The notes under the pieces are model-generated. The model did no database searches, was not told the DNA's origin, and saw only the letters and a list, made by a program, of their open reading frames with translations. 45,144 nt of DNA, taken from sequence record MZ234026.1, one strand, 5' to 3'. How positions within the stretch are numbered: position 1 is the stretch's first letter; the number at the start of each line of letters is the position of its first letter. Origin of the DNA: Escherichia phage vB_EcoS-CHD2B1. This document shows positions 150 to 41,895 of this stretch, piece after piece. Made by a program: the position numbers and the translations under genes.

Positions 150-180
150 GCAACCAATTTAGCAGGGTGCCAGGCTGAAT
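150..180. promoter_or_regulatory. Pair of TGCAACCAA motifs upstream (minus orientation) of gene 44839..45144
   Basis: gtgcaaccaattt...gaatgcaaccaatatt; same 9-mer recurs in many intergenic regions of this genome. Confidence 0.4.
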
Positions 181-339
181 GCAACCAATATTAATCATGC
201 GTATGAAAAAGCCGATCCCTATCTGCTGTAACTGCAAACTGCATTTTTCACTCACCATAATACAACTCGCATTGGTTGCCTAGTTCATCAACGACCGCAA
301 TTCACATCATGTTGCCGTGTGTTATGCAATCCCGGATTT

Positions 340-513
340 TATGCAGTCTCAGACGAGGGGGGCCAACTGACCCCCGTCTAGTCTGAAAGACTGGGGTTTG
401 TCCCGCCTGTCCCGCTCCCCTGCAAGCCGCGTAATCCGGGGCGGGACGGGGGTGCTGTCCCGCTTTGTCCCGCCCCCTGGCTGTCCCGCTTTTTGTCCCG
501 CTTACTTTATGCA
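340..513. repeat. Iteron element copy A: two adjacent hairpins followed by about five GTCCCGC direct repeats and GCGGGAC inverted copies, flanked by TTATGCA motifs
   Basis: About 170 bp near-identical to 28536..28704; non-coding by position (between primase stop at 608 and gene start at 137). Confidence 0.8.
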
Positions 514-607
514 ATAAAACTGCATAACTATTCACTATATTTACACTACACGGCAACCAATGCGACCAGCTAAAAACACTCAATTTGGCAACCAATGCGC
601 GCAAAAT

Positions 608-2872
608 TTAATCTTTCAGGTCATCATCGGTCGCTGAAAGCGTGATGGGTATATCCGATTTTATGACCAGATTCGACGACCCATAGATGGCCCCGGTGTG
701 TGGATCTGTATAAAATCCGAGCACGCCGCGCTCCACCATATCGTCAATTGCCTTCGTCGATGTGCCACCTTTCGCAAGTCCAGCCTGGCGGACGATTGCC
801 GATTTACTGAATCCAGTATGGTCCGGGTTATCTTCCATCAGTTTTTCCAGTGCCGCATAAAGCACCTTCTCTTTCTCGTTGCGCGGTCCGGCGGTGTTCT
901 CTTCCTTAACTGCTGCCTTGCCTGCTGCCTTAGCCTGTTCGATAGCGAACGGCGCCAGGGCGACCGGTACGAGGTAAAGAGTCTCGTCGCGTGGCGTGGA
1001 GGCAATTGGCTTGACGTCCCAACCGGCAACCACATCGCCGAAGTCTGGCCCGGTGCTGGTGGACTGGTGGGCTTCGAACGCATCAGACTTACGGAGATCC
1101 ACCTTAACTTTGCACTTGAGCAGGACGAAGCCACGCGGCGCTTGCTTGATGCCGTTACGTGACTTTTCGTGATACAGGTTAAGCTGGCCTGGCTGATTAT
1201 CGTCCGGCTGTTCCAGGAAGAACGCAGAATCTACAGCACCATGAAGCGCGCCGGACCCGCGTGGTGACCTGCTGCCGTTTGCACCCTTAGCCGGGTGATG
1301 GATGACACCCGCACTGCCACCTGTATTTTCCGCAATGGACTTCAGCGCCTTGACCACTTCGCCCATATCGCTTGCGTTGTTCTCGTCGAACGGTTTGGCA
1401 TCAGCGGACCGCAGCGCTACAGTCTGGTTGAGTGAGTCGAAGGCCACCAGGCCAACCGGCTCCCCGTTAGCGGTGCGGTTGATAAAGCTGATAACCTCGC
1501 GCAAGCCTGACTTGCTGGTAATATCCCAGCCGCGTGATTGCAGGTCGATAATGTGCAGCTTGTCGAGGTCGTGCTCGTATTTAATCTGCAATGCTTCCTT
1601 ACGCTGGTTGGAGGCTTCGCCACCTTCCGCATCGAAATAGAAGCAATGCGACTGGACGACCTTCGCGCCACCGAACGGAATCCCCGCGGCAACAGCGCCC
1701 ATCTGGCCCAGCACGTAGAACGACTTACCAATGTTCGACTCACCCGCCATATACCAGGTAGATTTGAAGTTGACCAGGCCTTCGATAATCGGGTCGTGCT
1801 TACTGAACAGAGCGACCGGCTCGTTGTCCAGGTCAGCGTCGGTGCATTCGCCGTACTCGTCGCCGTCTCCGACCGCATCAACAATATGTTCATAGCACGA
1901 TTCCACTTCCTCGTCGTCCAGTCCGGGAAGGATGGCGGCGATTTGCTTGCGTGACATGTTGTGTGGCTCGACGTTCAAGTGGTCCGGGATGCCGATCAGA
2001 CGCAGCGCCAGGTGCTGGTGTTTATTCAGTTCGGAACAGAATTCGTTGCCGGTGTGCATACACTTGAAACGGATCTCGCCATCCTTAACCATGATAGCCG
2101 TCGACCCGCCGCCGCTATGCAGGTGCTCGTTCGGGCAAGGCACTTCATAACCGCGACCGGATGACAGTGGTTCAAAGCCAGCCTGGAAGCACCAATCCAG
2201 AATGCCGTCCGCCACGCCATCGGCGCCCTGGGTCAGTTCGCGGCGCACTTCCTCTTTCTCCACTCCCAGCTTGTCAGCCAGGCGAAGCAGACGACGGACA
2301 CGGGCGCGCTTTCCGTAGTGGCACTTTATGACAGACTGCTGGTGAGGCAGGTACATAAGGCGGTTGGTGTCTTTCGTACAATCGTCGAAGTCCACATCTG
2401 ACAGGCCCAGTTGGTCTAATAGCGCATACTGGACGCGGCCCAGGTCTTCAGCCGGTACAGGCTTGTCAGTGAGCACCAGGAAACGGGCGCAACGTGTGCC
2501 GCCTTTCAGTGGGTGACGGTCGCCGGTTGTGGTGTGGAATACGTGCTCCAGGCCAGCGTCGGTGAACGCCTTACGGCAGCGGCGTAAGGTGCGGGTGTCA
2601 GTGCGGTCAATATCGAAGAACAGGATCGAGCGGTCGACCGCACTGGTCTTGCGGCGTAAGCCATCATTGGTATAGGCCACGATGCCATCAGCCTTACGCT
2701 TGCGGCGCGCATACTCGGCTTTATCTTCAGTCTTGTTGATGTGCACCGAGGAGATTTCTTTCGCATCGTTGATAAATTCGAAAAATTCATCAGTGGTCAT
2801 CTCGAAGTTTTCCGCCCTGGCTTTTTCGCCTTTTTTAGCGGGTCTTGTTACTGCGAATTTAATTAAGCTCAT
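608..2872 (-). CDS. DNA primase/helicase (N-terminal primase-polymerase-like domain, Cys/His zinc-binding motif, C-terminal RecA-like helicase with Walker A GESNIGKS)
   Basis: 754-aa ORF; motifs CPNEHLHSGGGS...KCMHTGNE and GESNIGKS...AFDSLN; ATG at 2872. Confidence 0.8.
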   Translation of the reverse strand: MSLIKFAVTRPAKKGEKARAENFEMTTDEFFEFINDAKEISSVHINKTEDKAEYARRKRKADGIVAYTNDGLRRKTSAVDRSILFFDIDRTDTRTLRRCRKAFTDAGLEHVFHTTTGDRHPLKGGTRCARFLVLTDKPVPAEDLGRVQYALLDQLGLSDVDFDDCTKDTNRLMYLPHQQSVIKCHYGKRARVRRLLRLADKLGVEKEEVRRELTQGADGVADGILDWCFQAGFEPLSSGRGYEVPCPNEHLHSGGGSTAIMVKDGEIRFKCMHTGNEFCSELNKHQHLALRLIGIPDHLNVEPHNMSRKQIAAILPGLDDEEVESCYEHIVDAVGDGDEYGECTDADLDNEPVALFSKHDPIIEGLVNFKSTWYMAGESNIGKSFYVLGQMGAVAAGIPFGGAKVVQSHCFYFDAEGGEASNQRKEALQIKYEHDLDKLHIIDLQSRGWDITSKSGLREVISFINRTANGEPVGLVAFDSLNQTVALRSADAKPFDENNASDMGEVVKALKSIAENTGGSAGVIHHPAKGANGSRSPRGSGALHGAVDSAFFLEQPDDNQPGQLNLYHEKSRNGIKQAPRGFVLLKCKVKVDLRKSDAFEAHQSTSTGPDFGDVVAGWDVKPIASTPRDETLYLVPVALAPFAIEQAKAAGKAAVKEENTAGPRNEKEKVLYAALEKLMEDNPDHTGFSKSAIVRQAGLAKGGTSTKAIDDMVERGVLGFYTDPHTGAIYGSSNLVIKSDIPITLSATDDDLKD

Positions 2873-2882
2873 TGCCGTTGCC

Positions 2883-3212
2883 TTACTTAGAAGTTTTATT
2901 ATTGCGTACCCAGGAGCGCACGGTGCTCTGATTAATTCCAGTTAACTCGGCAATCATCGCCCAGGACTTGCCCTCGTCGCGCAAACGGATAACCTGCTTT
3001 TTGTATTCTTCCATTTCTTCATTGTGTTTTTGCAGCTTGCTTGCTGCCGTACCGTTGAGTAATTCCAGCTTGGCGCGCAATTCTTTTTCGACACTGCGCA
3101 GGCGTTCGATTTCAAATAACGCCGCACCAACGGCATCGGTATAAGCCCAGGACCGGCTTGTCTCACCACTAACGGTCTTAGTTAACATTTCGATTGCGTC
3201 GTTGATATGCAT
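2883..3212 (-). CDS. Small DNA-binding protein with C-terminal helix-turn-helix (candidate transcriptional regulator)
   Basis: 109-aa ORF, coiled-coil middle, C-terminal WAMIAELTGINQSTVRSWV HTH-like segment; RBS AGGAGA 6 nt upstream of ATG. Confidence 0.55.
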   Translation of the reverse strand: MHINDAIEMLTKTVSGETSRSWAYTDAVGAALFEIERLRSVEKELRAKLELLNGTAASKLQKHNEEMEEYKKQVIRLRDEGKSWAMIAELTGINQSTVRSWVRNNKTSK

Positions 3213-3258
3213 TGTTCTGTCTCCTATTGGTTAATGACCAACGAAACTACACCTAAAA

Positions 3259-3287
3259 TTGCAGGGTGTCAACTCCTTTTGTATATT
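3259..3287 (+). promoter_or_regulatory. Sigma70-like promoter TTGCAG-N17-TATATT
   Basis: -35 at 3259..3264, 17-nt spacer, -10 at 3282..3287; lies in the divergent intergenic region. Confidence 0.4.
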
Positions 3288-3342
3288 GAAACGGGCGCGC
3301 ACGCGTGTAATAATAATCACGTCTCATTGTCTCTTATTGGTT

Positions 3343-3378
3343 AGCGCCGTCGCATTTTGCCTCGGCGCTTTTTTTTTG
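3343..3378 (+). terminator. Rho-independent terminator (AGCGCCG ... CGGCGCT followed by 9 T)
   Basis: GC-rich inverted repeat 3343..3369 followed by T-run 3369..3377, about 80 nt downstream of the promoter at 3259..3287. Confidence 0.5.
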
Positions 3379-3388
3379 AAATTAGTTG

Positions 3389-3418
3389 TTGACACCCCAC
3401 CTGCAACCAATCTATTAT
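3389..3418 (+). promoter_or_regulatory. Strong sigma70-like early promoter TTGACA-N18-TATTAT; TGCAACCAA motif sits in the spacer
   Basis: Consensus -35 TTGACA at 3389..3394, -10 TATTAT at 3413..3418; upstream of the plus-strand operon starting at 3615. Confidence 0.55.
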
Positions 3419-3614
3419 TCACTCCGTCGACAGGATGCAGGACGCAAACTGGAGAGGGGCAACGCAGGGGCCGGATCGAAGTGTCAGGATTCCCAACCGT
3501 GATTATATAACCAGGTCCACTACCCGAAAGGGAGAACGCGTAACCTGGCACTATGTTAAGGCCACCGACGAAGTTGACTGCCGACACCTAAACTTAACCA
3601 ATCGGAGATATACC

Positions 3615-4133
3615 ATGTTTGAGCAAATCGTAAACCTGATCACACGCGGCGTAGTAGCACTGGAAACCATCGCTAAGCATTATGAAACTGCTGGCGCTGC
3701 CGTTGGTAAACAGGAAGCGAAGAAAGCCCCGGCTAAGGGCAAGGCAAAAGAAGAAGTAGTCGAAGATGACGACGCTGAAGACGAAGCACCGGCTAAGACC
3801 AAAAAAGCGCCAGCAAAGGGCATGGCTAAGAAAGAAGCCGTAGAAGAAGACGACGCGGACGACGAAGAAGAAGCCCCGGCGAAATCTAAGAAAGCACCGG
3901 CGAAAGGTAAAGGCAAGAAAGATGCCGATCCGCTGAAAGAGATGCGCGACGAAATCAAGCAGTATGCCGCTATTATTGCTGGCGGTGATGACGACGACGC
4001 AAACGACGAATTTGACGACCTGCTGGAAGAATTCGAAATTAAATCCGTTGCCAAGCTGGAAGATGACGACGTGGAAGAGTTCCACCAGGAATTAAAAGCA
4101 ATCGTCGAAACTTATTTCGAATTAGAAGATTAA
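3615..4133 (+). CDS. Highly acidic repeat protein (alternating Lys-rich KKAPAKGK and Asp/Glu-rich blocks); candidate DNA-mimic or host-takeover protein
   Basis: ATG at 3615 with GGAG RBS; in-frame upstream ATG at 3435 has no RBS; repeats EDEAPAKTKKAPAKG / EEEAPAKSKKAPAKG; first gene after the early promoter. Confidence 0.6.
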   Translation: MFEQIVNLITRGVVALETIAKHYETAGAAVGKQEAKKAPAKGKAKEEVVEDDDAEDEAPAKTKKAPAKGMAKKEAVEEDDADDEEEAPAKSKKAPAKGKGKKDADPLKEMRDEIKQYAAIIAGGDDDDANDEFDDLLEEFEIKSVAKLEDDDVEEFHQELKAIVETYFELED

Positions 4134-4137
4134 TATA

Positions 4138-4263
4138 ATGGACTATGAAATGAGAATCACGCTCGATTTCATAGCAGAAAATTGGGCGGCATTCACCGCC
4201 TTCTGCGAAGAAAGAGGCGACGACCCGGACGAGGTTTATAGACAACTCGGCGGTGAAGATTAA
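4138..4263 (+). CDS. Small acidic hypothetical protein (41 aa)
   Basis: ATG at 4138 two nt after the upstream stop; ends just before terminator 4270..4298; below the ORF-track size cutoff. Confidence 0.3.
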   Translation: MDYEMRITLDFIAENWAAFTAFCEERGDDPDEVYRQLGGED

Positions 4264-4269
4264 TATTAT

Positions 4270-4298
4270 CCGGCCCGCTAATCTGCGGGCCTATTTTT
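4270..4298 (+). terminator. Rho-independent terminator (GGCCCGC taatct GCGGGCC tattttt)
   Basis: Perfect 7-bp GC stem followed by T-run. Confidence 0.6.
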
Positions 4299-4311
4299 AG
4301 AGGACGAGACA

Positions 4312-6178: not shown

Positions 6179-6413
6179 GGTGTTTGCATTCGTATTGATG
6201 ATTATGCTCGGCGCGCTGGGCTTTATCCTGCATTGCGTGCAAGGCGTGTTAATGGTGGCCTGGATGATTCGCCATCCGTCCCGCTGGCTGGACGATGGCT
6301 ACAGCGACGTTGCCGTCGATTGGGTCGAGAAGCACATCGACCGACCGCCGTTAAGCTGGATCGAGAACGCCACCAACTACGTGACGCGAAATCTTTTTAA
6401 TAAAAGTGCTTGA
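6171..6413 (+). CDS. Small membrane protein (80 aa)
   Basis: ATG with GAGGA RBS; hydrophobic N-terminal half VFAFVLMIMLGALGFIL. Confidence 0.5.
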   Translation: MNKVFAFVLMIMLGALGFILHCVQGVLMVAWMIRHPSRWLDDGYSDVAVDWVEKHIDRPPLSWIENATNYVTRNLFNKSA

Positions 6414-6438
6414 CCGCTTAGGCGCAACCAAGTAAATT
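6410..6438 (+). promoter_or_regulatory. Sigma70-like promoter TTGACC-N17-TAAATT with GCAACCAA motif in spacer
   Basis: -35 at 6410..6415, -10 at 6433..6438; upstream of the SSB gene. Confidence 0.45.
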
Positions 6439-6502
6439 AGCAACCAAGCCGAACGGGGTGGCTCACAATAACCCCGATACATGCGAAATGAGGAATTGAG
6501 AA

Positions 6503-7294: not shown

Positions 7295-7313
7295 GGGCAA
7301 AGCCCACTATTCA

Positions 7314-7340: not shown

Positions 7341-7352
7341 GGACAATGAAAA

Positions 7353-9911: not shown

Positions 9912-10190
9912 ATGACACCAGAAGGCAAGATTCAAAGTCACCTGATGCGACGGGTGAAAGAGGTTGGCGGATTCTGCCGCAAGCTGGCATGGGAGGGGCG
10001 CGCAGGTGCGCCCGACCTGATTATTATCATCAACGGCATCATAGTATTCGTCGAAGTGAAGCGCCCCGGAGGAAAACCGAAGCCGCACCAGGTGCGAGAA
10101 CATGAGCGAATGGCCCGCCGCGGTGCTGACGTTCGCGTTATTGACAACATAGCCGACTGCGATTTATTGGTTGCTGAATTGGTCGCGTAG
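9912..10190 (+). CDS. VRR-NUC domain nuclease (PD-(D/E)XK superfamily)
   Basis: 92 aa; GAPDLIII...VFVEVKRPGGKPKPHQ pattern. Confidence 0.65.
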   Translation: MTPEGKIQSHLMRRVKEVGGFCRKLAWEGRAGAPDLIIIINGIIVFVEVKRPGGKPKPHQVREHERMARRGADVRVIDNIADCDLLVAELVA

Positions 10191-10230
10191 CGGTATAGTG
10201 TGCCGGTTAGCCCTATCGAGGATTTTAGAA

Positions 10231-13106: not shown

Positions 13107-13111
13107 ATTGG

Positions 13112-13140
13112 TTGCGTAATTAGATTGGTTGCATTATCTT
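13112..13140 (+). promoter_or_regulatory. Putative promoter TTGCGT-N17-TATCTT overlapping two TTGGTTGC motifs
   Basis: Motifs at 13108..13115 and 13125..13132 upstream of gene at 13187. Confidence 0.3.
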
Positions 13141-14571: not shown

Positions 14572-15038
14572 AACTACTGATTTGTGATCTGGATGGCGTT
14601 ATTAATGGTTCAAGTGATGCGCGTGCTGACCTGGTGCCCGGCATAAAAACCAAATCAACCTTTTGGGCGAAGTGGCACAAAGCACACGTACGCGAAGACC
14701 TTAACATGGATATGCTGCCGCTGCTGCGCATGTACAAAGAGCAAGGCTTCGAGATAGCGTATCTGACTAACCGGCAGCGCGAATGCTGGGACACGACCGC
14801 CAAGCAATTGGAAGTATTCCCGACGGGCCGGTTGTTCATGCGCCACATGCTGGACGACACCCCTCCGCCAGAGTTTAAGGCGTGCGCTGTGTTCAAAATG
14901 GTGTGCTATGCGGACGTGTCGGAACTGGTCATCATTGAAGACTGCCCGAAGAATATCGAAGCCATCCGTCGGGCGTGCAGCGATCTGGTCCCTAAAATTT
15001 ATTCTATAAACGTAGCAAAATTTACTTGCAACCAATAG
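14568..15038 (+). CDS. HAD-superfamily phosphatase (possible nucleotidase)
   Basis: N-terminal ICDLDGVI (DxDG motif I of HAD hydrolases). Confidence 0.55.
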   Translation: MKLLICDLDGVINGSSDARADLVPGIKTKSTFWAKWHKAHVREDLNMDMLPLLRMYKEQGFEIAYLTNRQRECWDTTAKQLEVFPTGRLFMRHMLDDTPPPEFKACAVFKMVCYADVSELVIIEDCPKNIEAIRRACSDLVPKIYSINVAKFTCNQ

Positions 15039-15055
15039 GTTGGTTGCACTATAGT
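15026..15055 (+). promoter_or_regulatory. Sigma70-like promoter TTGCAA-N18-TATAGT containing palindromic operator-like site GCAACCAA-tagg-TTGGTTGC
   Basis: Perfect inverted repeat of the recurrent motif between -35 and -10. Confidence 0.5.
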
Positions 15056-15663: not shown

Positions 15664-16239
15664 ATGTACGGCGAATACGAAATAACCGGTAAACAATTCC
15701 ACATCGCGGCAATGTTAGCAAGCGTCGAGTTTGACCAGTGGCGCTTAAAGTCTGACGCGTGCAAGCAAAGCCGTCTGGTCGGTGTGCTGGGCGAGATGTT
15801 TGCGGGCATGTACCTTGAAGGGCAGGCGGGCGGGCGTAGTTGTATCCCGCAAGGCTTGCTCATGCGTACCGGCCTGTTTAGCGCCAACACCATCGACCGC
15901 GGCGATATTATCATGGTCGGTAAACGCAAGGTTAAGTCTGGCCCCGACTTCCGTGAGCACATGATTGATGCCGTCTGGACCTACGAGGTTAAAGCCACCA
16001 GCGGCATCCGTCGCGGACTGGTAGAAGCCCGTTGCGCTCGCGAATATCTAACCCGTCGAGTTGCCGGTGTTATCCTGGTGGGCGTATCGTTCGGACAACA
16101 TAGCGCGCACGGTGTAATTGAGGATATTGCGGAGCCATACGTGATTGTGAACGATTGGCCCCTGGTGGAAGTAGAAGGCAAGGAATATTATGAGAGTCCG
16201 CTGGTGCGGCGAAAAATGGATTGGGAAAACTCAAACTAA
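15664..16239 (+). CDS. Hypothetical protein (191 aa)
   Basis: ATG with GAGGA RBS; last gene of plus-strand block. Confidence 0.5.
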   Translation: MYGEYEITGKQFHIAAMLASVEFDQWRLKSDACKQSRLVGVLGEMFAGMYLEGQAGGRSCIPQGLLMRTGLFSANTIDRGDIIMVGKRKVKSGPDFREHMIDAVWTYEVKATSGIRRGLVEARCAREYLTRRVAGVILVGVSFGQHSAHGVIEDIAEPYVIVNDWPLVEVEGKEYYESPLVRRKMDWENSN

Positions 16240-16264
16240 AAAAGGGGCCGTATGGCCCCTTCTA
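16238..16264. terminator. Bidirectional hairpin terminator AAAAAAGGGGCC gtat GGCCCCTTCT between convergent genes
   Basis: 6-bp G/C stem flanked by A-run and T-rich tract; convergent gene ends at 16239 and 16266. Confidence 0.65.
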
Positions 16265-16265
16265 A

Positions 16266-18308
16266 TTATGCTTTGGTCAGTGCCGCTACGGCAGCTTTCA
16301 ATTCCTCCAGTTCTTTCTGCATATCTTCCACTTTACGCCCCATAAAGACCATCGCGCACGCCATATCTGTTAACATGACGTTGCTGTCAAGTGCCAGCGT
16401 GTCGTCGTAGTAGTCGCCGTCTTCGGCTTTGAATCCTTCAGTCCCTACGAGGTCCGGGTTTTTAAGTGCGCCGGGGATAATCTTCACGTATTGCGGATCG
16501 ATTTTCACCAGGTCCTGCGCGATAAGGCCATAGCGCTGGATTTCCGACCCTTTATACTTAAACATTGTGGGAAGCCACTGCATCACTCGATCGTAGCTTT
16601 CTTTCCCTTCCGTGTACTTAATATCGTGCTTCAGGTCACGGTCGGACGTAGGCGCTTTGGAAAATGTGTACGCGCCGAATGTACCGCTGACCTGGATATC
16701 GCAACTGTTAACGACGAACTCGAAGTTGGTCCAGTTTTCGCCATCCCCTCGGCAGCGCAATGCCGCACGGGGCCAGTTCGCCGTGCCCTGAGAGATAAGC
16801 CCCCACGTGGCGCGGATAGGGTATCCGCCGGTTGATTGGGACCGCCAGGAGATTGCAGGAACCCAGCCGCCGTCGTTATTTCCGACGTCAGATAGCCACA
16901 CACCGCTGTCCCCGTAGTTGTTAGGCTGGTCCCAGCCGGTCTGGAAACCTTCGGCGATAAGTCGTCTGGCGGACATCTTTCCATCGGGTCTAAACCGGTA
17001 GCGCCATTCCGCCACGCCAGCATTCAGGACGTAGACCTCATAGGCTTCAAGCCCCGTCCCTCCCTGACGAATCGGCCCGGTAAACACCGCGCTATTTTGC
17101 CAGTTATACCGCGTGAATCCGGTATAGTCGTTCGGCTTTGGTGGGTTAAGCGACAGTAGCTGCACGGTGTTACTATCGACGCCGTTCAGAAGTAATTCGC
17201 CACCCTGCGCAGACGACAGGCGCTTGAATCCGTTAAAGTTACCTTCGACGTCGAGTTGATAGTAATGTGACCCCGAAGGCGTGATTACGCCGATCGTGTG
17301 CTTTCCGGTCCCTAGTTGTGTTTCTGCGTAGCTTTGCGTCGTTACCACGTCCTCACCGTTGCTATTCTTTAGCTTAGACTGGAACATTCCGCCCTGCGCC
17401 GATACGGTGTCGGGGGCTGATTTAACAGCGAGAGCACCCTTAAAAATAGGCTCGTTACCCTCCCCCAGTTCGAGGTTGGTGCGCGACGTCTGCACATCGG
17501 CAACGCCTGCAAGGTTGCCGGATTTAGTTAGCAGATTATCCGCGTTTACGCTTTGCGCCCATTCTTCGGCCTGATCGCGAAATCCCTGCGCGGCAGTGCT
17601 GGCGGCTTGCGCGTCAGTCTTCGCAGTATTGGCTTCATCGCGAATAACGCCAGTATCCGTCTTAATCTGGTCGGTCTGGTCCTTGATAGACTGCGTATCA
17701 GTCTTAATCTGGTCGGTCTGCGTCTTGATCGTATTGGTGGCGTCGTGGATTGCCTGCGTGTCAGTCTTGATTTGGTCGGTCTGCGTCTTGATGGCATTGG
17801 CATCGTTCTTGAAGCCTTCGGCCTCATTGCGCGACACCAGCGCGGCGGCTTCCGATGCGGCGGCTTGTTGTTGCAGGTCGCGCATTTCGACGGGGTCTAC
17901 TTCCTTCAACAAGGATGACAGGTAGCCCCATGACATTCCCTGCATAACTTGCCCGTTTGGCAGCGTTACCGTGACTTCTTCAGCGTCGCCGAAGATTGCA
18001 CGCCAGTTGTTTTCATCCGCGATCATCAAGCGTAGTGCTTTCTGCGCCTGGACGGTTACGCCCATCGTTGCAAGGGACATGGTATCGCGCGCCACGCTAT
18101 CCCATGCGAGGCCGGTTGCCGTTGGGCCATCGAATGGCAGCGCCAGTGTAAGCGCGGTGTCGCTCTCAATGGATGCAATAGCAATAGTGTAAGGGACTTG
18201 CCCTACTACCAGCGACAGGAAGTCGCCCGCCTTCAGCGCGGTAAGCGTTGTGCCGTCTCCAGTCACCGCGGTGCTGTTATTCGTTACGGATAGTGTACCC
18301 GCTGCCAT
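16266..18308 (-). CDS. Tail fiber protein with internal tandem repeats and C-terminal intramolecular chaperone (peptidase S74-like) domain
   Basis: ATG at 18308 with GAGGA RBS (ORF track starts at upstream TTG 18335); repeats TQTDQIKTDTQ; C-terminal SDRDLKHDI...YGLIAQDL. Confidence 0.7.
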   Translation of the reverse strand: MAAGTLSVTNNSTAVTGDGTTLTALKAGDFLSLVVGQVPYTIAIASIESDTALTLALPFDGPTATGLAWDSVARDTMSLATMGVTVQAQKALRLMIADENNWRAIFGDAEEVTVTLPNGQVMQGMSWGYLSSLLKEVDPVEMRDLQQQAAASEAAALVSRNEAEGFKNDANAIKTQTDQIKTDTQAIHDATNTIKTQTDQIKTDTQSIKDQTDQIKTDTGVIRDEANTAKTDAQAASTAAQGFRDQAEEWAQSVNADNLLTKSGNLAGVADVQTSRTNLELGEGNEPIFKGALAVKSAPDTVSAQGGMFQSKLKNSNGEDVVTTQSYAETQLGTGKHTIGVITPSGSHYYQLDVEGNFNGFKRLSSAQGGELLLNGVDSNTVQLLSLNPPKPNDYTGFTRYNWQNSAVFTGPIRQGGTGLEAYEVYVLNAGVAEWRYRFRPDGKMSARRLIAEGFQTGWDQPNNYGDSGVWLSDVGNNDGGWVPAISWRSQSTGGYPIRATWGLISQGTANWPRAALRCRGDGENWTNFEFVVNSCDIQVSGTFGAYTFSKAPTSDRDLKHDIKYTEGKESYDRVMQWLPTMFKYKGSEIQRYGLIAQDLVKIDPQYVKIIPGALKNPDLVGTEGFKAEDGDYYDDTLALDSNVMLTDMACAMVFMGRKVEDMQKELEELKAAVAALTKA
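17570..17830. repeat. Tandem ~33-bp coding repeats inside tail fiber gene
   Basis: Repeated gtcttaatctggtcggtctg / gtcttgatttggtcggtctgcgtcttgat units encoding KTDTQ-type repeats. Confidence 0.6.
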
Positions 18309-18329
18309 AGCTAAATCCTCATAAATTGG

Positions 18330-18358
18330 TTGCATTCTTGATCGAGCGGTGTAATACT
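18330..18358 (+). promoter_or_regulatory. Putative promoter TTGCAT-N17-AATACT overlapping TTGGTTGCAT motif, driving the plus-strand island
   Basis: Motif at 18326..18335; upstream of lipoprotein gene. Confidence 0.4.
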
Positions 18359-18612: not shown

Positions 18613-19578
18613 ATGGGTGCTGGAATACTTATCGACTACAACGACGGTAGACCTGTCATGGAGATAACCGCGGGCCTTCGCGCTCCGTCGTTCTGCACTA
18701 CCTTTAATCAGCGCTGTCAGTCTGACAAGACGCTGACCATTAACACACCGCTGACACCGGGGTCCGAACTGGTCGTTGCCCTAACTAATCCGGTAGAAGT
18801 GATGGAAGTATTCGACCAGACCCTGGTCTTGCCAGACCCGTTTTATGTGACGTCGATACAACGTAACGGGGATGGCGGAATCACCTTGCGCGGTGAGGAT
18901 GCCTATAACGCATACAGCGGGCTTCCAACATGGGGCGGGGTGATTATGGAAGTGCTGCCGGTTGGGTCACGCAATGCGGGCTTACTGGTAGCTAACTCAA
19001 CGGACTTCACCGCAATATCCAACGTCGCACGGCTAATGACCTGCCGATATGCGCAGCGCGTGCATGTAAACGGAAGTATGCCGCTACCCGTCGGCGGTGT
19101 CCCGTTCGCTCGCTGGGACGACGGCAACGTATCGGTTGGCTTCGATGGCGGAAGTATTATCGTCCGTAATGCGTCCTATGGCGGGATTGACGACGTAGGC
19201 GCTGCCGTCGACATGGACCTGGTTATATTCAACAATACGCCGCCATCACCGGGGACCGGTATCACCATGACTAACAACCAGGGGCAGGTCACGTTCTCGA
19301 CGGTAAACAAGCCGTTTGTCTACGACCGCACGATTAATATCGGTGGCGGCGACCAGCACATCGGTAATAGTCTGATCCAGCTTTCATATACCGGTGCGCT
19401 CATTGAGAACAACAGCGGCTATAACCATGTGCGCATGAACGGGATACGAATGGCGGGTAATAATGTGCGCATCGCCAAAAACCGCGTTATTGGCAACTAC
19501 TCACGGCAGCAATTCCAAATGCCGGGCAAAAATATTGCCGTACCCACCCCGCTACTAGTCATCCCTAACATCTATTAA
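18613..19578 (+). CDS. Hypothetical 321-aa protein co-transcribed with the lipoprotein (candidate receptor-binding or tail-associated protein)
   Basis: ATG at 18613 right after the lipoprotein stop; Gly/Asn/Thr-rich; function not recognisable from sequence. Confidence 0.5.
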   Translation: MGAGILIDYNDGRPVMEITAGLRAPSFCTTFNQRCQSDKTLTINTPLTPGSELVVALTNPVEVMEVFDQTLVLPDPFYVTSIQRNGDGGITLRGEDAYNAYSGLPTWGGVIMEVLPVGSRNAGLLVANSTDFTAISNVARLMTCRYAQRVHVNGSMPLPVGGVPFARWDDGNVSVGFDGGSIIVRNASYGGIDDVGAAVDMDLVIFNNTPPSPGTGITMTNNQGQVTFSTVNKPFVYDRTINIGGGDQHIGNSLIQLSYTGALIENNSGYNHVRMNGIRMAGNNVRIAKNRVIGNYSRQQFQMPGKNIAVPTPLLVIPNIY

Positions 19579-19603
19579 AAAAGGGGCCGGATGGCCCCTT
19601 CTC
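19576..19603. terminator. Bidirectional hairpin terminator AAAAAAGGGGCC ggat GGCCCCTTCT (near-identical to 16238..16264)
   Basis: Between convergent gene ends at 19578 and 19606. Confidence 0.65.
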
Positions 19604-19605
19604 AT

Positions 19606-23666: not shown

Positions 23667-24397
23667 TCTGTGATTTCCCCAGGTAAGTCTTTATGACGTA
23701 CCCATTTAACCACATTGTCGCGGAAAAATCCTGCCCGGAAGGGGACCACGCTCGACAAGCTGCCGTAGATATGGTGTAGTAGTTGGTTGCCCGGAAGGAA
23801 GATTCCCGCGTGGTTAGGCACTGGCGCGCTAATCTGCATGATGACCATTGCCCCCGGTGTATTCTCCTCGCACTCCCTGAATCCCGCATCATACCAGTTA
23901 TCCATATACAGGCTTTCGCCCATTTCCCACCAGTTGTACGGCACGCGGAAGTCAGGCAGATTCACTCCCTGCTTTTTGTGCCAGTCCATGACGAGGCCAT
24001 AGCAATCCGTAATTCCGAGAACAAATCGGCGACCTACCAGCGGCGGGTCTTCCGGGTCGATCTCGATAAAGTCGCCATACTCATTGGTGATGGTCCACAC
24101 AATGCCGCTGCCGTTACATCCGCTAACGTCGCCCAATGATGGGGTTAGCTCGCGCTGGCCTGGGTGTGAGTGGACTACGCGCACGACGTCGCCCATATCC
24201 TCGGCATCCATCCAGGCCATATCACTAATCGTGAACGCGTCCTTACGCGAGCGCGCGCCGGTCGGGTCTTCGAACACGTTCAGGCATGGTACAAATACTT
24301 GTTTGCGGCCCACCATGACGACCAGGCCGCAGGCTTCTTCAGGCAGACATGCCGCAACGTGCGCAGCGATATCGCTTTTTACCTTTTTCGTTAACAT
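23657..24397 (-). CDS. Tail assembly protein (lambda K-like; MPN/JAB plus NlpC/P60 domains)
   Basis: 246 aa; HSHP metalloprotease-like motif and Cys/His motif ...CYGLV...H. Confidence 0.75.
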   Translation of the reverse strand: MLTKKVKSDIAAHVAACLPEEACGLVVMVGRKQVFVPCLNVFEDPTGARSRKDAFTISDMAWMDAEDMGDVVRVVHSHPGQRELTPSLGDVSGCNGSGIVWTITNEYGDFIEIDPEDPPLVGRRFVLGITDCYGLVMDWHKKQGVNLPDFRVPYNWWEMGESLYMDNWYDAGFRECEENTPGAMVIMQISAPVPNHAGIFLPGNQLLHHIYGSLSSVVPFRAGFFRDNVVKWVRHKDLPGEITEWQ

Positions 24398-28535: not shown

Positions 28536-28850
28536 CAGTCTCAGACGAGGGGGGCCATTGACCCCCGTCTAGTCTGAAAGACTGGGAGTTGTCCCGCCTG
28601 TCCCGATCGGCTGAAACCCGCGGCAGCACTGACGGGGACGGGGTGCTGTCCCGCTTTGTCCCGCCCCATGTTTGTCCCGCTTTCTGTCCCGTTTGTTTTA
28701 TGCACGAAATCTGAATAGGTATGCACATTTAGGGGCTGGACGGATCGGGACGTCCCGCTCGTCCCGCTTTGAGTTTATGCAATGAAAGTGAGTAAGTATG
28801 CAGTTTTGCAAAACGGGACAAAGCGGGACGTCCCGTTTTGTCCCGCTTCA
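28536..28850. repeat. Iteron element copy B (extended): same hairpins and GTCCCGC repeats as copy A, plus extra CGGGACGTCCCG palindromes and TATGCACA motifs
   Basis: 28536..28704 aligns with 344..513; extra iterons 28740..28850; lies between the GT chaperone stop (28851) and tape measure start (28466). Confidence 0.8.
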
Positions 28851-34311: not shown

Positions 34312-34401
34312 GCTATCCCCCTGGGATTGTGGCAGAGCGGGCCACCCGCTCGACTTCACGCCTCTAATATTATCAGCGATAAAAATAATCGCAAAATTCG
34401 C

Positions 34402-34431
34402 TTGCAATTCAGGTATTGGTTGCACTATATT
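34402..34431 (+). promoter_or_regulatory. Sigma70-like promoter TTGCAA-N18-TATATT with two TTGGTTGCAC motifs
   Basis: Motifs at 34417..34426 and 34431..34440; upstream of plus-strand gene 34461. Confidence 0.5.
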
Positions 34432-34460
34432 GGTTGCACACCAACAATGAGGACACACAA

Positions 34461-35225
34461 ATGAGACTGACAAAAGACATTAAAAACCAGATTCTGGCTA
34501 ACATTCTGCGCGACCACGAAATCGCGACTGAAGCCAAAAAAATCATGATGGACTCTCGCGACCTGGCGTATGACATTACGTTGCACTGTATGCCAAAAGG
34601 CATTCACACGTTCGCCGAGCTACGCGCATATATCGCAGAAATCCGCGATAACCAGTCGCAGATGTACGGCGTCAGCGTTTACACCGATAAAGCGTCGTAC
34701 AGCTATAACAAGGACCGGACGAAAGGCATTGGACGCGTTTACTGCTCCACTTTCGAAATCAACGCAGGCGGTAACATCCGTACCCTGCATATGAGCGGCG
34801 ACGGATACCGCTACCGCCAGCACCGCGGATACTGGGAAGAGAAATATATGAATACGCTCGCGCCGGATCTCAGCGATATAGTACCGGGGTACGAGGAAGT
34901 TATGCTCGCGTCAGTGTGTGAAGTGGACGAGAACGGGGCCGCGCTGCCGATATATCTCCCGCGCGGTCGCGTAGACTACCCGGCAGATCATGATTTCTGC
35001 AAGCGCCTGGACCGCAACGACAAGGCCCGCCGTGAATTGCGTGCGAAGTATGACGCGTTCAAACTAACTGTTACCGGCGTGCTGGATATGCACAATACTG
35101 ACAAGAAGCTGATCGCGGCGTGGCCTGAAGTTGAACAGTTCATTCCATACCCGGACAAGCCGAAGTCAACGGCAGTAGCGCTGGACGTGAAGACGTTAAA
35201 CGAGATTTGCGGTATTCCGCGCTAA
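34461..35225 (+). CDS. Hypothetical 254-aa protein encoded as a plus-strand moron inside the structural module
   Basis: ATG with GAGGA RBS; own promoter and terminator; no recognisable domain by eye. Confidence 0.6.
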   Translation: MRLTKDIKNQILANILRDHEIATEAKKIMMDSRDLAYDITLHCMPKGIHTFAELRAYIAEIRDNQSQMYGVSVYTDKASYSYNKDRTKGIGRVYCSTFEINAGGNIRTLHMSGDGYRYRQHRGYWEEKYMNTLAPDLSDIVPGYEEVMLASVCEVDENGAALPIYLPRGRVDYPADHDFCKRLDRNDKARRELRAKYDAFKLTVTGVLDMHNTDKKLIAAWPEVEQFIPYPDKPKSTAVALDVKTLNEICGIPR

Positions 35226-35258
35226 CAAAAAGGGGGCCATTACGGCCCCCGAATTATT
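35226..35258. terminator. Bidirectional hairpin terminator (GGGGGCC attac GGCCCCC)
   Basis: Between convergent genes; the o-spanin stop codon lies in the loop. Confidence 0.6.
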
Positions 35259-35470: not shown

Positions 35471-35681
35471 ATTTTACAACCTCTTTCGTGATAGTCCGGT
35501 ATTCCACGTCGCGGGCTTGCTCAGCCTTCACCGACCCCTCAACAACCTTAGTTTGCTGCCGTTGGGCTTCGGCTTGCGCTTCTTGCGCCGCTTTCGCCAC
35601 AACGCCAGTGCGGTAGGAATCACCCTGCCAGAATCCAACCGCCAGACCGATAACCAGTCCAATCGCTGCATATTTAATCAC
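35373..35681 (-). CDS. Inner-membrane spanin (Rz-like): N-terminal TM helix plus periplasmic coiled coil
   Basis: TM segment VIKYAAIGLVIGLAVGFW; probable GTG start at 35681 (GGGGG RBS); ORF track gives TTG at 35711. Confidence 0.6.
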   Translation of the reverse strand: MIKYAAIGLVIGLAVGFWQGDSYRTGVVAKAAQEAQAEAQRQQTKVVEGSVKAEQARDVEYRTITKEVVKYVTRPNRPDCSFDAERVRIKQSAIDAANRVGL

Positions 35682-36777
35682 GCCATAACCCCCGGTTTTT
35701 AAGCTGTGCAATAGTCATTAGTTCGCCAGTATCTGTGAACATCCTCGGCACTTTCACGCCGCGCATAATCTGGTCTGCGCGCTGCACCCCATATAATTCC
35801 TCCAGAATATGGCGCGGCTGGCGCTGCACCCATGAGAAGAAATCAGTCTGCGCGTCGACCTGCTCACTCAGCAATCGACCCGCGTCAGCCTTCAGTGCCG
35901 GACGCTTACCACTGGGCCAATCTTCCATGCCTTTGACTTTCCACGTCTCCGTAGACCGGCAGCAATAATGCAGCTTGCCCGGACCAGCGCCATATTGTGA
36001 CCCAGCCACCACTTTCCCGCCGCGCTTTCCTTTGGTGTCGGGAGTAACATCAACTGGATAAAACAGGCGATCGCGTAGCTGGCACATGGGAGAAGTATGC
36101 GTATCCAATGTAGCCAACCATTGGCGACCTTCGAGAATATCGTCATTAGCTTTTACCATTAATTCGCGGGCGGTCGCCGCATAGTGGTTTACTGCGGACT
36201 TAACAACGCTTGAGATTGCCTGCGCACTACGACCGCCGAGAGCGCGCCTTACGTCCGCGATAATTTCCATAGTCGGCTTGCCCTGGATGAATCCAGCGCG
36301 CACCTGATTACCGATCTGCGTCCTGGTCCACTCCGAAAGTGAATCGGGCCATTGCATCATGGTGTTACCCTGGAATGGGTTTTTCATAGCCGTCGCTGCG
36401 ATCTGCGCGCCAGTCACTACGCCAACAACCTCAACAGCCGGTACGGCGACCGCTGGCTGGATCGCTGCCGTTAATGTATCGGCAAGATAATCAGCCTCCG
36501 TGTCGGCGAACTCCTGAAGGCTTTCAGCCAGCGCCTTAAACTCGGTGCGCAGTTCCGTTTTGACGGTCTTGTCGATTTGCGTTAACAGTGTGGTCAGTGC
36601 CTTGTTATTCATGGACTTTTTGCCATCAAGTAACTCGGTCAGCTTACCAAGTAACGTGGGCCGGAACTTCTCCCACATAGTCAGCACCCTTCGCGCCTGG
36701 TCATTGCTCAGGCGCTGGGTGAAGATGTGACGGCGAATCATACGATCCGCCATATGTTGATTAATTGTTCTCGCCAT
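35674..36777 (-). CDS. Head morphogenesis protein (Mu F / SPP1 gp7-like minor head protein)
   Basis: 367 aa; position immediately downstream of portal. Confidence 0.6.
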   Translation of the reverse strand: MARTINQHMADRMIRRHIFTQRLSNDQARRVLTMWEKFRPTLLGKLTELLDGKKSMNNKALTTLLTQIDKTVKTELRTEFKALAESLQEFADTEADYLADTLTAAIQPAVAVPAVEVVGVVTGAQIAATAMKNPFQGNTMMQWPDSLSEWTRTQIGNQVRAGFIQGKPTMEIIADVRRALGGRSAQAISSVVKSAVNHYAATARELMVKANDDILEGRQWLATLDTHTSPMCQLRDRLFYPVDVTPDTKGKRGGKVVAGSQYGAGPGKLHYCCRSTETWKVKGMEDWPSGKRPALKADAGRLLSEQVDAQTDFFSWVQRQPRHILEELYGVQRADQIMRGVKVPRMFTDTGELMTIAQLKNRGLWRD

Positions 36778-38281: not shown

Positions 38282-38291
38282 GGTCGTTTCC

Positions 38292-40228: not shown

Positions 40229-40311
40229 GATATAAGCCCTTTTATGCATATGCGCCGACCATCGGCAACATAGGAGACGGCCCAGCCATCTAAGGGGGAT
40301 TATAACAGGCA

Positions 40312-40338
40312 CAAAAAAGCCCACCAAATCGGCGGGCT
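40312..40338 (-). terminator. Rho-independent terminator on minus strand (GCCCGCC gattt GGTGGGC plus 6 T)
   Basis: Located between gene 40346..40558 and terminase small subunit gene. Confidence 0.55.
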
Positions 40339-40345
40339 GGGAGGG

Positions 40346-40558
40346 TTAAACGGCGCGACCGTAGTATCTGGTCAACATGCTTTCTACTTCGCTTATAGCG
40401 CCTTCTGTGTAGCGTATCTGCGATAGTATCTCGATCCGCTCACTGATAGACATGCCTATTGCCGCTGCCGTTCGTTCGAATCGGCGCAAGCCTTCAAGCT
40501 GTTTGCGAAGCTCTTTCAGGCGGGTGGCCTGCGTGCTCATGAATACTTGTCTAATCAT
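40346..40558 (-). CDS. Small coiled-coil hypothetical protein (70 aa)
   Basis: ORF overlapping the upstream gene stop. Confidence 0.45.
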   Translation of the reverse strand: MIRQVFMSTQATRLKELRKQLEGLRRFERTAAAIGMSISERIEILSQIRYTEGAISEVESMLTRYYGRAV

Positions 40559-41697
40559 TTCAACATTTCCGGGCTAATGGTTAAGCGCGCTACTTCGCCG
40601 TAGTTGGCGCTATAGGTGATGACGTTAGCACTACGACCAGACATCCAACCGCCGCGGCTCGCATATGCGTCTTTCGCGGCAAGGGTCCGGTGCTGTTCAA
40701 CAATCATGTTGCGGGATTCAACAATCTTCTGGTGGTGCAAGTGGCCCACGTGCGCGTAGCTGTACTCACTGGACCCGAAAGCCTGTCTGAATTTAGAAAT
40801 CATGACCGGTTCGATGGCGTCAAAGCGTGCTTTGTGTCCGTGGTGGAAGAACAGCGTTGTTTTACCGTGCTGCACCATTTTGTAAACGTCCGGGGACGTG
40901 TCCACATCAACGCGCGGCTCGTTCTCGTACAGGGTATTGAACATCTCAGCCAGCCAAATCATACCGGACTCATCATGATTACCCTGGACGATTAACAGTT
41001 TGACCTTATGGTGTTTTTGCAGCGCCAGTTCAACCACGTTGCGCACCATGCAAATCATGTAGCGGACCAGTTTCTGGTAGCGGGTATCTGCGTCCAGTAC
41101 GTGACCACTGGCTGGCGTGACGGCGTCGAGGCTGTCAAAGTGGGCCATATCACCGAGGATATTGATTACAGCAGTGCCAGCGTCCGGCGCGCGGGCGAAG
41201 GCTTCGACAAACCAGCGGTAAAAAAGGTCTTCGGCGATTGCCATATCCCAGTCCTCGCCAGTCTCCTCGCCCCACGCCAACATTCCCAGGTGGAAGTCTG
41301 ACACGGTATACAGGTTAAGCAGGTCAAGCGCCTGGATCGGGACTGGCGGAGCGCTCACTGGTGCTGCCGGTGTGATTTCGCTATTCATGCCCTCGACAAC
41401 GGCGCGCATTGCTTCGAGTTGGCGCTCCTTGTCCTGCTCGGTGATAACCCAGGACATGACCTCTTCGCCATTGCCACGCACAAGGGCGGAGACACGCTTA
41501 ACGCCGAAGCCATCGGCAACGCGCTTACGGATTACAGCATCGTTGCCGTGTCCAATGCCTTTCTTCGACAGGCGAGCTTTGCGCATATAGACATTTCGAA
41601 GGGCAATGCCGTATTTCTTCGCAATATCTTTCGAGGTAGTGCCAGATTGCAATTCAGCGATCAATTGCTCGTCGGTAATTTTAGTTTGCGGGTGCAT
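40555..41697 (-). CDS. Calcineurin-like metallophosphoesterase (SbcD/Mre11-like motifs) with N-terminal helix-turn-helix domain
   Basis: 380 aa; N-terminal TSKDIAKKYGIALRNVYMRK; motifs YTVSDFHLG, ILGDMAHFD, VQGNHDE, GHLHH. Confidence 0.65.
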   Translation of the reverse strand: MHPQTKITDEQLIAELQSGTTSKDIAKKYGIALRNVYMRKARLSKKGIGHGNDAVIRKRVADGFGVKRVSALVRGNGEEVMSWVITEQDKERQLEAMRAVVEGMNSEITPAAPVSAPPVPIQALDLLNLYTVSDFHLGMLAWGEETGEDWDMAIAEDLFYRWFVEAFARAPDAGTAVINILGDMAHFDSLDAVTPASGHVLDADTRYQKLVRYMICMVRNVVELALQKHHKVKLLIVQGNHDESGMIWLAEMFNTLYENEPRVDVDTSPDVYKMVQHGKTTLFFHHGHKARFDAIEPVMISKFRQAFGSSEYSYAHVGHLHHQKIVESRNMIVEQHRTLAAKDAYASRGGWMSGRSANVITYSANYGEVARLTISPEMLK

Positions 41698-41759
41698 ATT
41701 AATTTACTTCCTGATTGAGAGGACCGAGGACAATATACCACGGTCCCTATGGCGGCGGG

Positions 41760-41840
41760 CTATAGCAATTCGCAAATAGCCATACCGATGAATGCGGCGG
41801 CGGACCAGATTGCCAGTACATAAATATCATTGCGTGTCAT
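41760..41840 (-). CDS. 26-aa hydrophobic peptide
   Basis: ATG 41840 preceded by strong RBS GAAGGAG; sequence MTRNDIYVLAIWSAAAFIGMAICELL. Confidence 0.3.
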   Translation of the reverse strand: MTRNDIYVLAIWSAAAFIGMAICELL

Positions 41841-41863
41841 AGTGTATTACTCCTTCTCGTTGA

Positions 41864-41895
41864 TTGGTTGCAGTATGGCCCTTATGTTGGTTGCA
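41864..41895. promoter_or_regulatory. Pair of TTGGTTGCA motifs (spacing 23 bp)
   Basis: gattggttgcagtatggcccttatgttggttgcaag between terminator 41905..41932 and the small peptide gene. Confidence 0.4.

Follow-up and report, generated by a model that had tools for sequence, protein, structure and literature searches.

We examined a recurrent short intergenic word, ATTGGTTGC(A), in the genome of Escherichia phage vB_EcoS-CHD2B1 (MZ234026.1), whose full 45,144-nt sequence is referred to here as the window. The window holds a complete genome of the genus Dhillonvirus (HK578-like siphophages of E. coli), with identities of 97.6% to vB_EcoS_WFI and 95.8% to Haito_Bas83. Positions 1-126 are identical to 45019-45144 (the start of the gene at 45144..44842), so the assembly is circularly closed or terminally redundant, with a circular map of ~45,018 bp. 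The gene map was transferred from annotated Bas83 and amended by eye where annotation and sequence clash; one small Bas83 gene, Bas83_0058, is absent from the window.

The core word TTGGTTGC has 19 matches on the two strands, compared with 1.87 ± 1.32 in dinucleotide-preserving shuffles (largest 6), and TTGGTTGCA has 11 matches compared with 0.49 expected from shuffles, an enrichment of ~10- to 20-fold. Non-coding DNA makes up ~6% of the genome, and in a k-mer comparison across the whole window the motif words were by far its most enriched k-mers. ATTGGTT was found 17 times in non-coding and never in coding sequence; for TTGGTTGC the counts were 18 and one, if the terminal 10-25 nt of two genes and a doubtful 40-amino acid (aa) open reading frame (ORF) are taken as non-coding. 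An earlier note, which had described the motif as intergenic, is borne out by these counts and by the shuffles: the words are not equally frequent inside and outside genes. The single coding copy (23783-23790), well within a tail gene, is probably there by chance. Aligned copies gave the consensus A-TTGGTTGC-A, with no conservation further out; the base 5' of the core is A in 14 of the 19 copies and T in none, and the base 3' of it is A in 11. The 18 non-coding copies are spread over 11 regions, and paired copies are spaced by 12, 14, 16, 17, 23, 31 or 35 bp, without helical phasing. Three sites extend the motif to TTGGT-N5-ACCAA: two over the -10/+1 of predicted promoters (at 157 and 34430) and one downstream of the promoter of a gene for a helix-turn-helix (HTH) protein.

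In each motif region we placed a -35/-10 pair as the best solution of a simple position weight matrix (PWM), with a stringent consensus scan as cross-check. The copies and predicted promoters (P1-P9) are the following.

184..179 (- strand): predicted -35 of P1, TTGCAT, taken from the copy at 188..181; P1 reads towards the gene at 45144..44842, whose product by eye has an HTH-like C-terminus
161..156 (-): predicted -10 of P1, TAAATT; a second copy, 157..150, begins in its last TT
157..143 (-): palindrome TTGGT-N5-ACCAA, extending the second P1 copy (157..150)
272-279 (+): lone copy between the iteron region and P1, invariant in 4 genomes, with variable flanks
595..588 and 560..553 (-): two direct copies 35 bp apart, in the short stretch between the stop codon of the primase-helicase gene and the iteron array
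3272..3267 (-): TTGACA, -35 of the predicted HTH-gene promoter, then N17 and TAGTTT at 3249..3244
3241..3227 (-): TTGGTCATTAACCAA, a conserved palindrome and TTGGT-N5-ACCAA relative of the motif, 3' of the HTH-gene promoter
3389-3394 (+): TTGACA, -35 of predicted P8, then N18 and TATTAT at 3413-3418; 11/12 consensus matches
3403-3410 (reverse): GCAACCAA, copy in the P8 spacer
6410-6415 (+): TTGACC, -35 of predicted P7, then N17 and TAAATT at 6433-6438; ahead of the SSB/DNA polymerase operon
6424-6431 and 6440-6447 (both reverse): P7 copies, in the spacer and over +1
10171-10176 (+): TTGCTG, -35 of predicted P5, with -10 TATAGT at 10194-10199; ahead of a Lar-like gene
10167-10174 (forward): P5 copy, supplying the -35; a degenerate, conserved copy, TTGGTCGC, lies in the spacer at 10179-10186
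13112-13117 (+): TTGCGT, -35 of predicted P4, with -10 TATCTT at 13135-13140
13108-13115 and 13125-13132 (both forward): P4 copies, the first supplying the -35 and the second abutting the -10
15026-15031 (+): TTGCAA, -35 of predicted P3, then N18 and TATAGT at 15050-15055
15028-15047: 20-bp P3 palindrome GCAACCAA-tagg-TTGGTTGC, made of copies 15028-15035 (-) and 15040-15047 (+)
18330-18335 (+): TTGCAT, -35 of predicted P6, with -10 AATACT at 18353-18358; ahead of lipoprotein and membrane-protein genes
18326-18333 (forward): single P6 copy, supplying the -35
34402-34407 (+): TTGCAA, -35 of predicted P2, then N18 and TATATT at 34426-34431; ahead of nmad5
34416-34423 and 34430-34437 (both forward): P2 copies, in the spacer and over the -10/+1
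34430-34444: TTGGTTGCACACCAA, P2 palindrome that includes the copy at 34430-34437
41901..41896 (-): TTGACT, -35 of predicted P9, then N18 and CATACT at 41877..41872; directly after a terminator
41894..41887 and 41871..41864 (both reverse): P9 copies, in the spacer and over +1

The ten places named by the earlier note all hold the motif, within 1-5 nt of the positions it gave, and its perfect palindrome at P3 was recovered; the copy at 10167-10174 (+) had escaped it.

At the nine promoters every copy falls between -39 and +2 as placed by the PWM. Forward copies at -39..-32 form a -35 of the type TTGCnn with a 17-nt spacer (188-156 on the minus strand, 10167, 13108 and 18326). A slot at about -22..-14, abutting the -10, is used in either orientation (3403, 6424, 13125, 15040 and 34416), as is one at about -8..+2, over the -10 and +1 (157-150, 6440, 34430 and 41871-41864). 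Further reverse copies lie at -34..-27 (15028) and -29..-22 (41894-41887). The promoters at 3389, 6410 and 41901 have canonical TTGAC -35 hexamers and carry reverse copies only, and at P3 (15026) the reverse copy supplies the -35, TTGCAA. In all nine regions a -35/-10 pair with 16-18 nt spacing was the best PWM solution, and the hexamers are kept in relatives. The PWM and the consensus scan agree with the earlier suggestion that copies sit in the -35 region or spacer of sigma70-like promoters. The further suggestion of a phage-specific promoter element holds only in part: five promoters take their -35 from a copy, but copies in the spacer or at +1 cannot act in this way, and reverse copies have no -10 of their own at the right distance. 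We also considered reverse copies as -35 elements of antisense promoters and found no acceptable -10 at 19 nt; as they lack a -10 at the distance seen for forward copies, they are not elements of this kind.

The units served by these promoters comprise replication and nucleotide-metabolism genes, the Lar-like gene, the lipoprotein gene, nmad5, the left-arm operon of small genes, and a metallophosphoesterase gene. P8 is the first rightward promoter and stands ahead of the gene for an acidic protein (3615..4133) and of replication genes. The P5 element overlaps the last codons of the VRR-NUC gene, and the P6 copy (18326-18333) is also just upstream of the divergent tail-fibre gene start (18308). 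P9 precedes a 26-codon ORF and the metallophosphoesterase (SbcD-like) gene, and the P1 region is conserved in two further loci (L002 and L003). The motif thus marks non-late units. No non-coding copy is found in the structural blocks at 19.6-34.3 kb and 35.2-40.2 kb, and the two predicted late promoters are motif-free:

40299..40307 (-): predicted late promoter with extended -10 TGTTATAAT, ahead of the small terminase gene, directly after a terminator; motif-free
34394..34389 (-): TTGCGA of a predicted late promoter, then N16 and the extended -10 TG-a-TAATAT at 34375..34367, ahead of the scaffold and capsid genes; motif-free

The latter (34367..34394) lies back to back with P2. Both predicted structural-operon promoters are TGnTATAAT-like, unlike the -35-dependent, motif-bearing promoters elsewhere, a contrast that hints at a switch disabling -35 recognition late in infection. 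The presumed early or middle timing of the motif promoters is taken from gene content only.

Several gene calls near these promoters deserve comment. Bas83 annotates a minus-strand gene at 3594-4085, overlapped by a plus-strand ORF at 3615-4133 that has a good ribosome-binding site, lies downstream of the strong predicted promoter at 3389, and encodes an acidic, lysine-rich low-complexity protein (phrog_3127) conserved in Klebsiella phage VLCpiS11a and Salmonella phage VSiA; the plus-strand ORF looks like the real gene. Between the 3389 promoter and this gene start is a leader of ~190 nt (3425-3614, +), which is in frame with an ATG at 3435 and has no Rfam match. The ORF annotated at 302-604 (-), a 100-aa homolog of Bas83_0056, has a TTG start and 90% identity where its neighbours have 99%; its span is taken up by the iteron array, a long hairpin and a pair of motif copies, and it is probably not protein-coding. 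Another doubtful call is the 40-aa ORF at 41885-42004 (-) (Bas83 0069), which overlaps the terminator and P9; a hydrophobic 26-codon ORF (41840..41760) follows directly downstream of P9. By eye, a possible 55-codon ORF begins at 42103, although 42103..41937 gave no clean translation. ACCAA also recurs shortly upstream of Shine-Dalgarno sequences (TAACCAATAGGAGACA, TAACCAATAAGAGACA, CACCAACATGAGGAC and CACCAACAATGAGGAC, at 3215-3240, 3325-3345, 143-126 (-) and 34438-34463 (+)), which suggests duplicated leader modules. A reading of the motif at the RNA level, as a 5' hairpin formed by TTGGT and ACCAA, was rejected: the TTGGT arm is upstream of the predicted +1 at P1 and P2, most copies are outside the predicted transcripts, and there is no Rfam match in the window.

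To see how the motif is kept, we aligned twelve motif regions from up to 18 Dhillonvirus loci. Variable columns were far rarer within the motif (8 of 152) than in other non-coding sequence (226 of 944; Fisher p = 8e-9), and all eight came from one genome (L016), in which the second P3 copy, at 15040, has given way to one of opposite orientation. Both copies at 13108-13132 are constant around 8 hypervariable bases (six forms), the -10 at 6410-6447 differs in its fourth base between loci and the copies there do not, and 18326-18333 is invariant across 18 distinct sequences. Gain was seen as well, phage Gluttony having an additional degenerate copy beside 588.

A 55-base query from the 34400 promoter matched 157 phage records, all Dhillonvirus-like and mostly unannotated there. 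Scans of IMG/VR added two motif-bearing lineages: L156 (DNA polymerase 81% identical; 12 copies in 13 kb) and the group of Klebsiella phage VLCpiS11a (DNA polymerase 66% identical; 13 copies, 10 of them non-coding), both with the promoter architecture of the window. The motif extends beyond the genus. An IMG/VR scan for paired copies returned mostly coding tandem repeats or chance matches, with only Dhillonvirus and the VLCpiS11a lineage emerging. Orthologous promoters keep their copies, but in other positions or numbers: reverse copies of the SSB promoter are found at -21..-14 and -5..+2 in the window, at -21..-14 alone in L156, and at -26..-19 in VLCpiS11a, and the first rightward promoter carries a single copy in its spacer in the window, an abutting pair in L156, and a copy at +8..+15 in VLCpiS11a. 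At the place equivalent to 553..595 both L156 copies are oppositely oriented. Equally distant relatives have no copies (Salmonella Cornellvirus VSiA) or none to two (L157 and L018-L021), and run the same operons from ordinary promoters of the TTGACA-N17-TATCTT type. A search for another dispersed motif in L018-L029 and VSiA yielded only isolated hairpins or palindromes and terminators.

The motif is therefore a strongly enriched word, restricted to promoter-like non-coding DNA, held by purifying selection while its copies turn over, and distributed among some of the related lineages. Words under such selection that are free in position, number and orientation within the promoter core argue for a protein-binding site rather than a hexamer read by polymerase, and the motif is supported as a regulatory operator or promoter-class marker. 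With moderate confidence, we read ATTGGTTGC(A) as a short asymmetric operator placed inside the core of sigma70-type promoters of non-structural units. The units governed would be the two divergent replication operons, internal promoters of rightward replication, nmad5, the lipoprotein gene and the left-arm small-gene operon, each promoter having one or two copies between about -40 and +2 in either orientation. A sequence-specific factor, most likely encoded by the phage, would bind the copies and compete with RNA polymerase, so that the motif promoters, if in use as predicted, would be throttled or shut off during infection. The motif-free, extended -10 structural promoters would escape and carry late expression. 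The spacer and +1 are positions where bound proteins normally block RNA polymerase; most copies occupy the spacer or the -10/+1, which makes repression (early/middle promoters being throttled or shut off) the most economical reading, and the effect of the factor is most likely repressive. Copies at -39..-32 might also, or instead, aid polymerase at poor -35 hexamers.

Several points weigh against a dispersed operator. All of the promoters are predictions; only three of the nine pass a stringent consensus scan (9/12 matches), and promoter-like sites found by that scan are overall no commoner than in shuffles. No convincing promoter could be assigned by PWM to the copy at 272-279, and the copies at 553 and 588 have weak PWM candidates only, none convincing. 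P2 and P3 are paralogous (77% identity over 39 nt), so part of the motif's recurrence reflects duplication, and since the forward copy is the -35 hexamer at four promoters, part of its conservation could be promoter function. Phylogenetic profiling for a binder found no small protein specific to the motif-bearing lineages, and the one HTH regulator recognised in the phage has no homolog in the VLCpiS11a lineage, which keeps the motif.

This regulator was the binder proposed by the earlier note, which placed it at 2883..3212.

2886..3212 (-): HTH protein, 109 aa; the N-terminus varies, a long helix is predicted, and the C-terminal HTH is invariant

That it is the factor, a coiled-coil dimer with a sigma-region-4/LuxR-like HTH that recognises TTGCAA and CCAA, autoregulates through TTGGT-N5-ACCAA, and represses or re-programmes the other promoters, we regard as unlikely. 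The protein is a real candidate for DNA binding: residues 65-106 match Pfam HTH_23, HTH_28 and Sigma70_r4_2 just above the cut-offs, and there are weak matches to region 4 of ECF sigma factors; in the structural model a tri-helical HTH comes after a single long helix, and local matches link it to the HTH of resolvase, IstA and LuxR/GerE. In 24 protein clusters of the family the C-terminal 60 residues (LELLNGTAA...GKSWAMIAE.TGIN.STVRSWVRN) are invariant, as would suit an invariant DNA target, whereas the N-terminal 45 residues come in several unrelated versions. Directly after the HTH gene's own predicted promoter comes the conserved, motif-related palindrome, and the protein co-occurs with the motif in Dhillonvirus and L156. 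If it acts at the motif, this sigma-region-4-like protein could stand in for sigma70 region 4 at TTGCAA(CCAA) elements. However, neither tblastn nor a family hidden Markov model on six-frame translations found a homolog in VLCpiS11a and its relatives (L042, L151-L155, L158 and L159), which keep the motif in the same slots; the syntenic place in VLCpiS11a holds an unrelated 78-aa XRE-type protein that is also present in motif-less L157. The retention of motif and architecture there weakens the HTH candidate. Moreover, CHD5UKE2 has a divergent, 149-aa form (47% identity) with the recognition helix changed from STVRSW to STIRQW, yet its motif set is unchanged at 20 copies. Of the earlier proposal of an operator for a phage regulator, then, the cis-element stands, on its conservation, double orientation and variable placement, and the HTH protein as its binder is not supported.

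A similarly low probability attaches to the idea that no separate factor exists and that the motif is an intrinsic module for host RNA polymerase, a -35 variant (TTGCAA or TTGCAT) with a 4-nt extension that was spread by promoter duplication and kept for setting promoter strength. The forward copy is indeed the -35, with a 17-nt spacer, at four Dhillonvirus and three VLCpiS11a promoters, the reverse copy gives the -35 TTGCAA at P3 and at VLCpiS11a 4793, and paralogous promoters occur in both phages (P2/P3; VLCpiS11a 19001 and 34812). What such a module leaves out is that roughly half of the copies are placed in the spacer or cover the -10/+1, whichever way they point, with a TTGAC -35 alongside (P7, P8 and P9), that these are as invariant as the -35 copies, and that the invariant ATTGG falls outside the hexamer. 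Copies also shift at orthologous promoters, and sister lineages run the same operons motif-free.

We give a little less credence to an activator site, in which the motif would define a 'middle' promoter class and a factor bound at -39..-32 would offset a poor -35 (3/6 matches) in the manner of class II activators or T4 MotA. It would fit P1, P4, P5 and P6, whose weak -35 hexamers (TTGCAT, TTGCGT and TTGCTG) fail a 4/6 consensus scan and whose copies sit at identical -39..-32 positions, conserved in three lineages. Against it, the spacer and +1 are not usual activator positions, P7, P8 and P9 have a good TTGAC -35 and need no activator, and the 27 window proteins scanned gave no Pfam match to a MotA or AsiA family. 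The factor may have a dual role as activator and repressor.

It is improbable that the binder is a protein of the host, shared by E. coli and Klebsiella, for instance a FadR-type GntR regulator such as PdhR, coupling the early promoters to host physiology. To our knowledge, no E. coli regulator has the consensus of the motif. Phages of two host genera keep the motif without a detectable common small regulator, and ATTGGT is the PdhR half-site (PMC7660256); but the window has no TTGGT-N3-ACCAA, its three palindromes having N5, the remaining copies are lone half-sites with a conserved TGC that is not found in PdhR boxes, and neither related Salmonella phages nor other coliphages use the motif.

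A search for proteins common to motif-bearing Dhillonvirus and VLCpiS11a and absent from VSiA returned two methyltransferases, Nmad5 and a capsid protein. The small proteins scanned in the two lineages share a single PHROG family, phrog_4965 (the 0051 family). Besides this they have one further small protein in common, the acidic one; by tblastn, both are also present in VSiA. This profile bears on the weakest alternative, that the motif serves a DNA transaction other than transcription-factor binding, in its leading version base modification by a Dam-like methyltransferase or Nmad5 that alters promoter use: the methyltransferases and Nmad5 (predicted to act in DNA modification; PMC11846954) are the only non-structural proteins that track the motif, and nmad5 lies behind the most heavily decorated promoter, P2, but the capsid protein has the same profile, the co-occurrence comes from three lineages and may reflect shared ancestry of a module, the methyltransferase MTase1 is missing from motif-keeping L152, phages with nmad5 deleted are viable (PMC11846954), the Nmad5 model is of poor quality (predicted local distance difference test, pLDDT, 67) and matches no Protein Data Bank fold, and confinement of a modification target to promoter cores is not accounted for, so that we hold it very improbable. 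There is likewise only a slim chance that the phage marks its own early promoters by Nmad5 or Dam-like modification, switching them off or hiding them from a host sensor as replication proceeds.

Other repeated elements of the window are separate from the motif. An iteron-rich element is present in two copies (358-535 and 28549-28726; 81% identity over 178 nt), each combining 6-7 repeats of GCGGGACA with a GC-rich hairpin. The first directly follows the primase-helicase gene; the second is 28 kb off among small ORFs, in the interval between the tape-measure and tail-chaperone genes. They are probably a replication origin and a second cis site, a pair reminiscent of the P4 ori/crr. The iteron word downstream of the primase-helicase gene is GCGGGACA in the window, CTCGCAA in VLCpiS11a, TCCGACA in L157 and GGGGGAGA in Salmonella VSiA, always inside a conserved frame (GAATAGTTATGCA...). 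The arrays lie at 4743-5297 in L161, with a second at ~35680-35900 (VLCpiS11a, near 35.8 kb), at 3100-3560 in L157, and at 37005-37300 in L162. Iteron specificity seems to co-evolve with the primase-helicase. We also considered the HTH protein as binder of the GCGGGACA iterons instead of the motif. The iterons are lineage-specific and track the primase-helicase, the XRE protein spanning two iteron types; because of this tracking, the iterons neither assign the HTH protein a role nor free it of one. Two GC-rich hairpins (16237-16267 and 19576-19606; 94% identical, flanked by A/T runs) lie where convergent operons meet and are probably bidirectional terminators. The GC-rich 8-mers CGCTGCCG, ACGGCAGC, ACGGCAAC and CAACGGCA occur 20-33 times, compared with ~2 expected from base composition, in the window and in all Dhillonvirus loci; we rejected them as regulatory words, as they lie mainly within genes without marked strand bias and are probably a codon or composition effect.

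Dhillonviruses are among the most often isolated small coliphages, with >150 sequenced genomes, and serve in work on phage therapy and phage defence. Motifs that recur in promoters or operators are familiar from phage genomes. The literature we searched held no description of this motif, of Dhillonvirus/HK578 promoters or of transcriptomes, and matches to the motif string were primers or unrelated sequence; the motif is conserved in >150 genomes and apparently undescribed. It provides a map of about ten candidate regulated promoters and a simple bait (ATTGGTTGCA) for its regulator in an oligonucleotide pull-down, and the division between motif-bearing, -35-dependent and motif-free, extended -10 promoters suggests a possible mechanism for an early-to-late switch. 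Several gene calls that overlap regulatory DNA are corrected along the way. Interest would rise considerably if the binder proved to be an enzyme of DNA modification or a host protein.

We finally compared the motif with known systems. The sigma54 promoter is TGGCAC-N5-TTGCA, with GG and GC 12 nt apart; in the motif they are 4 nt apart, and the spacing of paired copies (12-35 nt) gives no fit. The CytR operator is a paired octamer, GTTGCATT; only 3 of the 19 copies continue as GTTGCATT, and the invariant ATTGG is outside the octamer. Both were rejected. The PdhR box of E. coli is AATTGGTnnnACCAATT (PMC7660256). Its half-site, ATTGGT, is identical to that of the motif, and the phage has three TTGGT...ACCAA palindromes. 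The window nevertheless differs in its N5 spacing, with zero N3 palindromes, and most copies are a single half-site plus TGC(A).

The T4 MotA box is a 9-bp element centred near -30 that replaces the -35 and is read by MotA together with AsiA. The motif resembles it as a phage-specific 9-mer that would mark a temporal class of host-polymerase promoters in a virulent phage and that occupies the -35 region of four of them at a set distance from the -10, but differs in that a fixed upstream position is seen at only four of the nine promoters, the other copies lying in the spacer or at +1, in either orientation and beside canonical -35 hexamers. No Pfam or PHROG match to MotA or AsiA was found among the 27 window proteins scanned, a set short of every ORF. 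L5 stoperators are 13-bp asymmetric gp71 sites, ~30 per mycobacteriophage genome, which lie in one orientation within transcribed regions and block elongation. The likeness is that of a short asymmetric site in short intergenic regions throughout the genome, strongly conserved in relatives; unlike stoperators, the window copies are inside core promoters (-39 to +2) and in both orientations.

The operators of phage P1 C1 have a 17-bp asymmetric consensus and more than a dozen sites across the genome, most of them overlapping promoters; P1 is temperate, and C1 is its immunity repressor. The motif differs in being only 9-10 bp long and in that no cognate repressor was found for the phage of the window, and neither the annotated relatives nor the Pfam matches of the 27 proteins gave an integrase, a CI-like repressor or a lysogeny module. 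The motif departs from each of the P1 C1, L5 and MotA families in at least one defining feature, no lysogeny module, cognate protein or fixed geometry having been found. In both P1 and the window, however, many non-palindromic sites, single or paired and in either orientation, overlap the promoters of separate operons, and by this analogy the dispersed asymmetric operators of the P1 C1 repressor appear to be the closest to the motif in logic.

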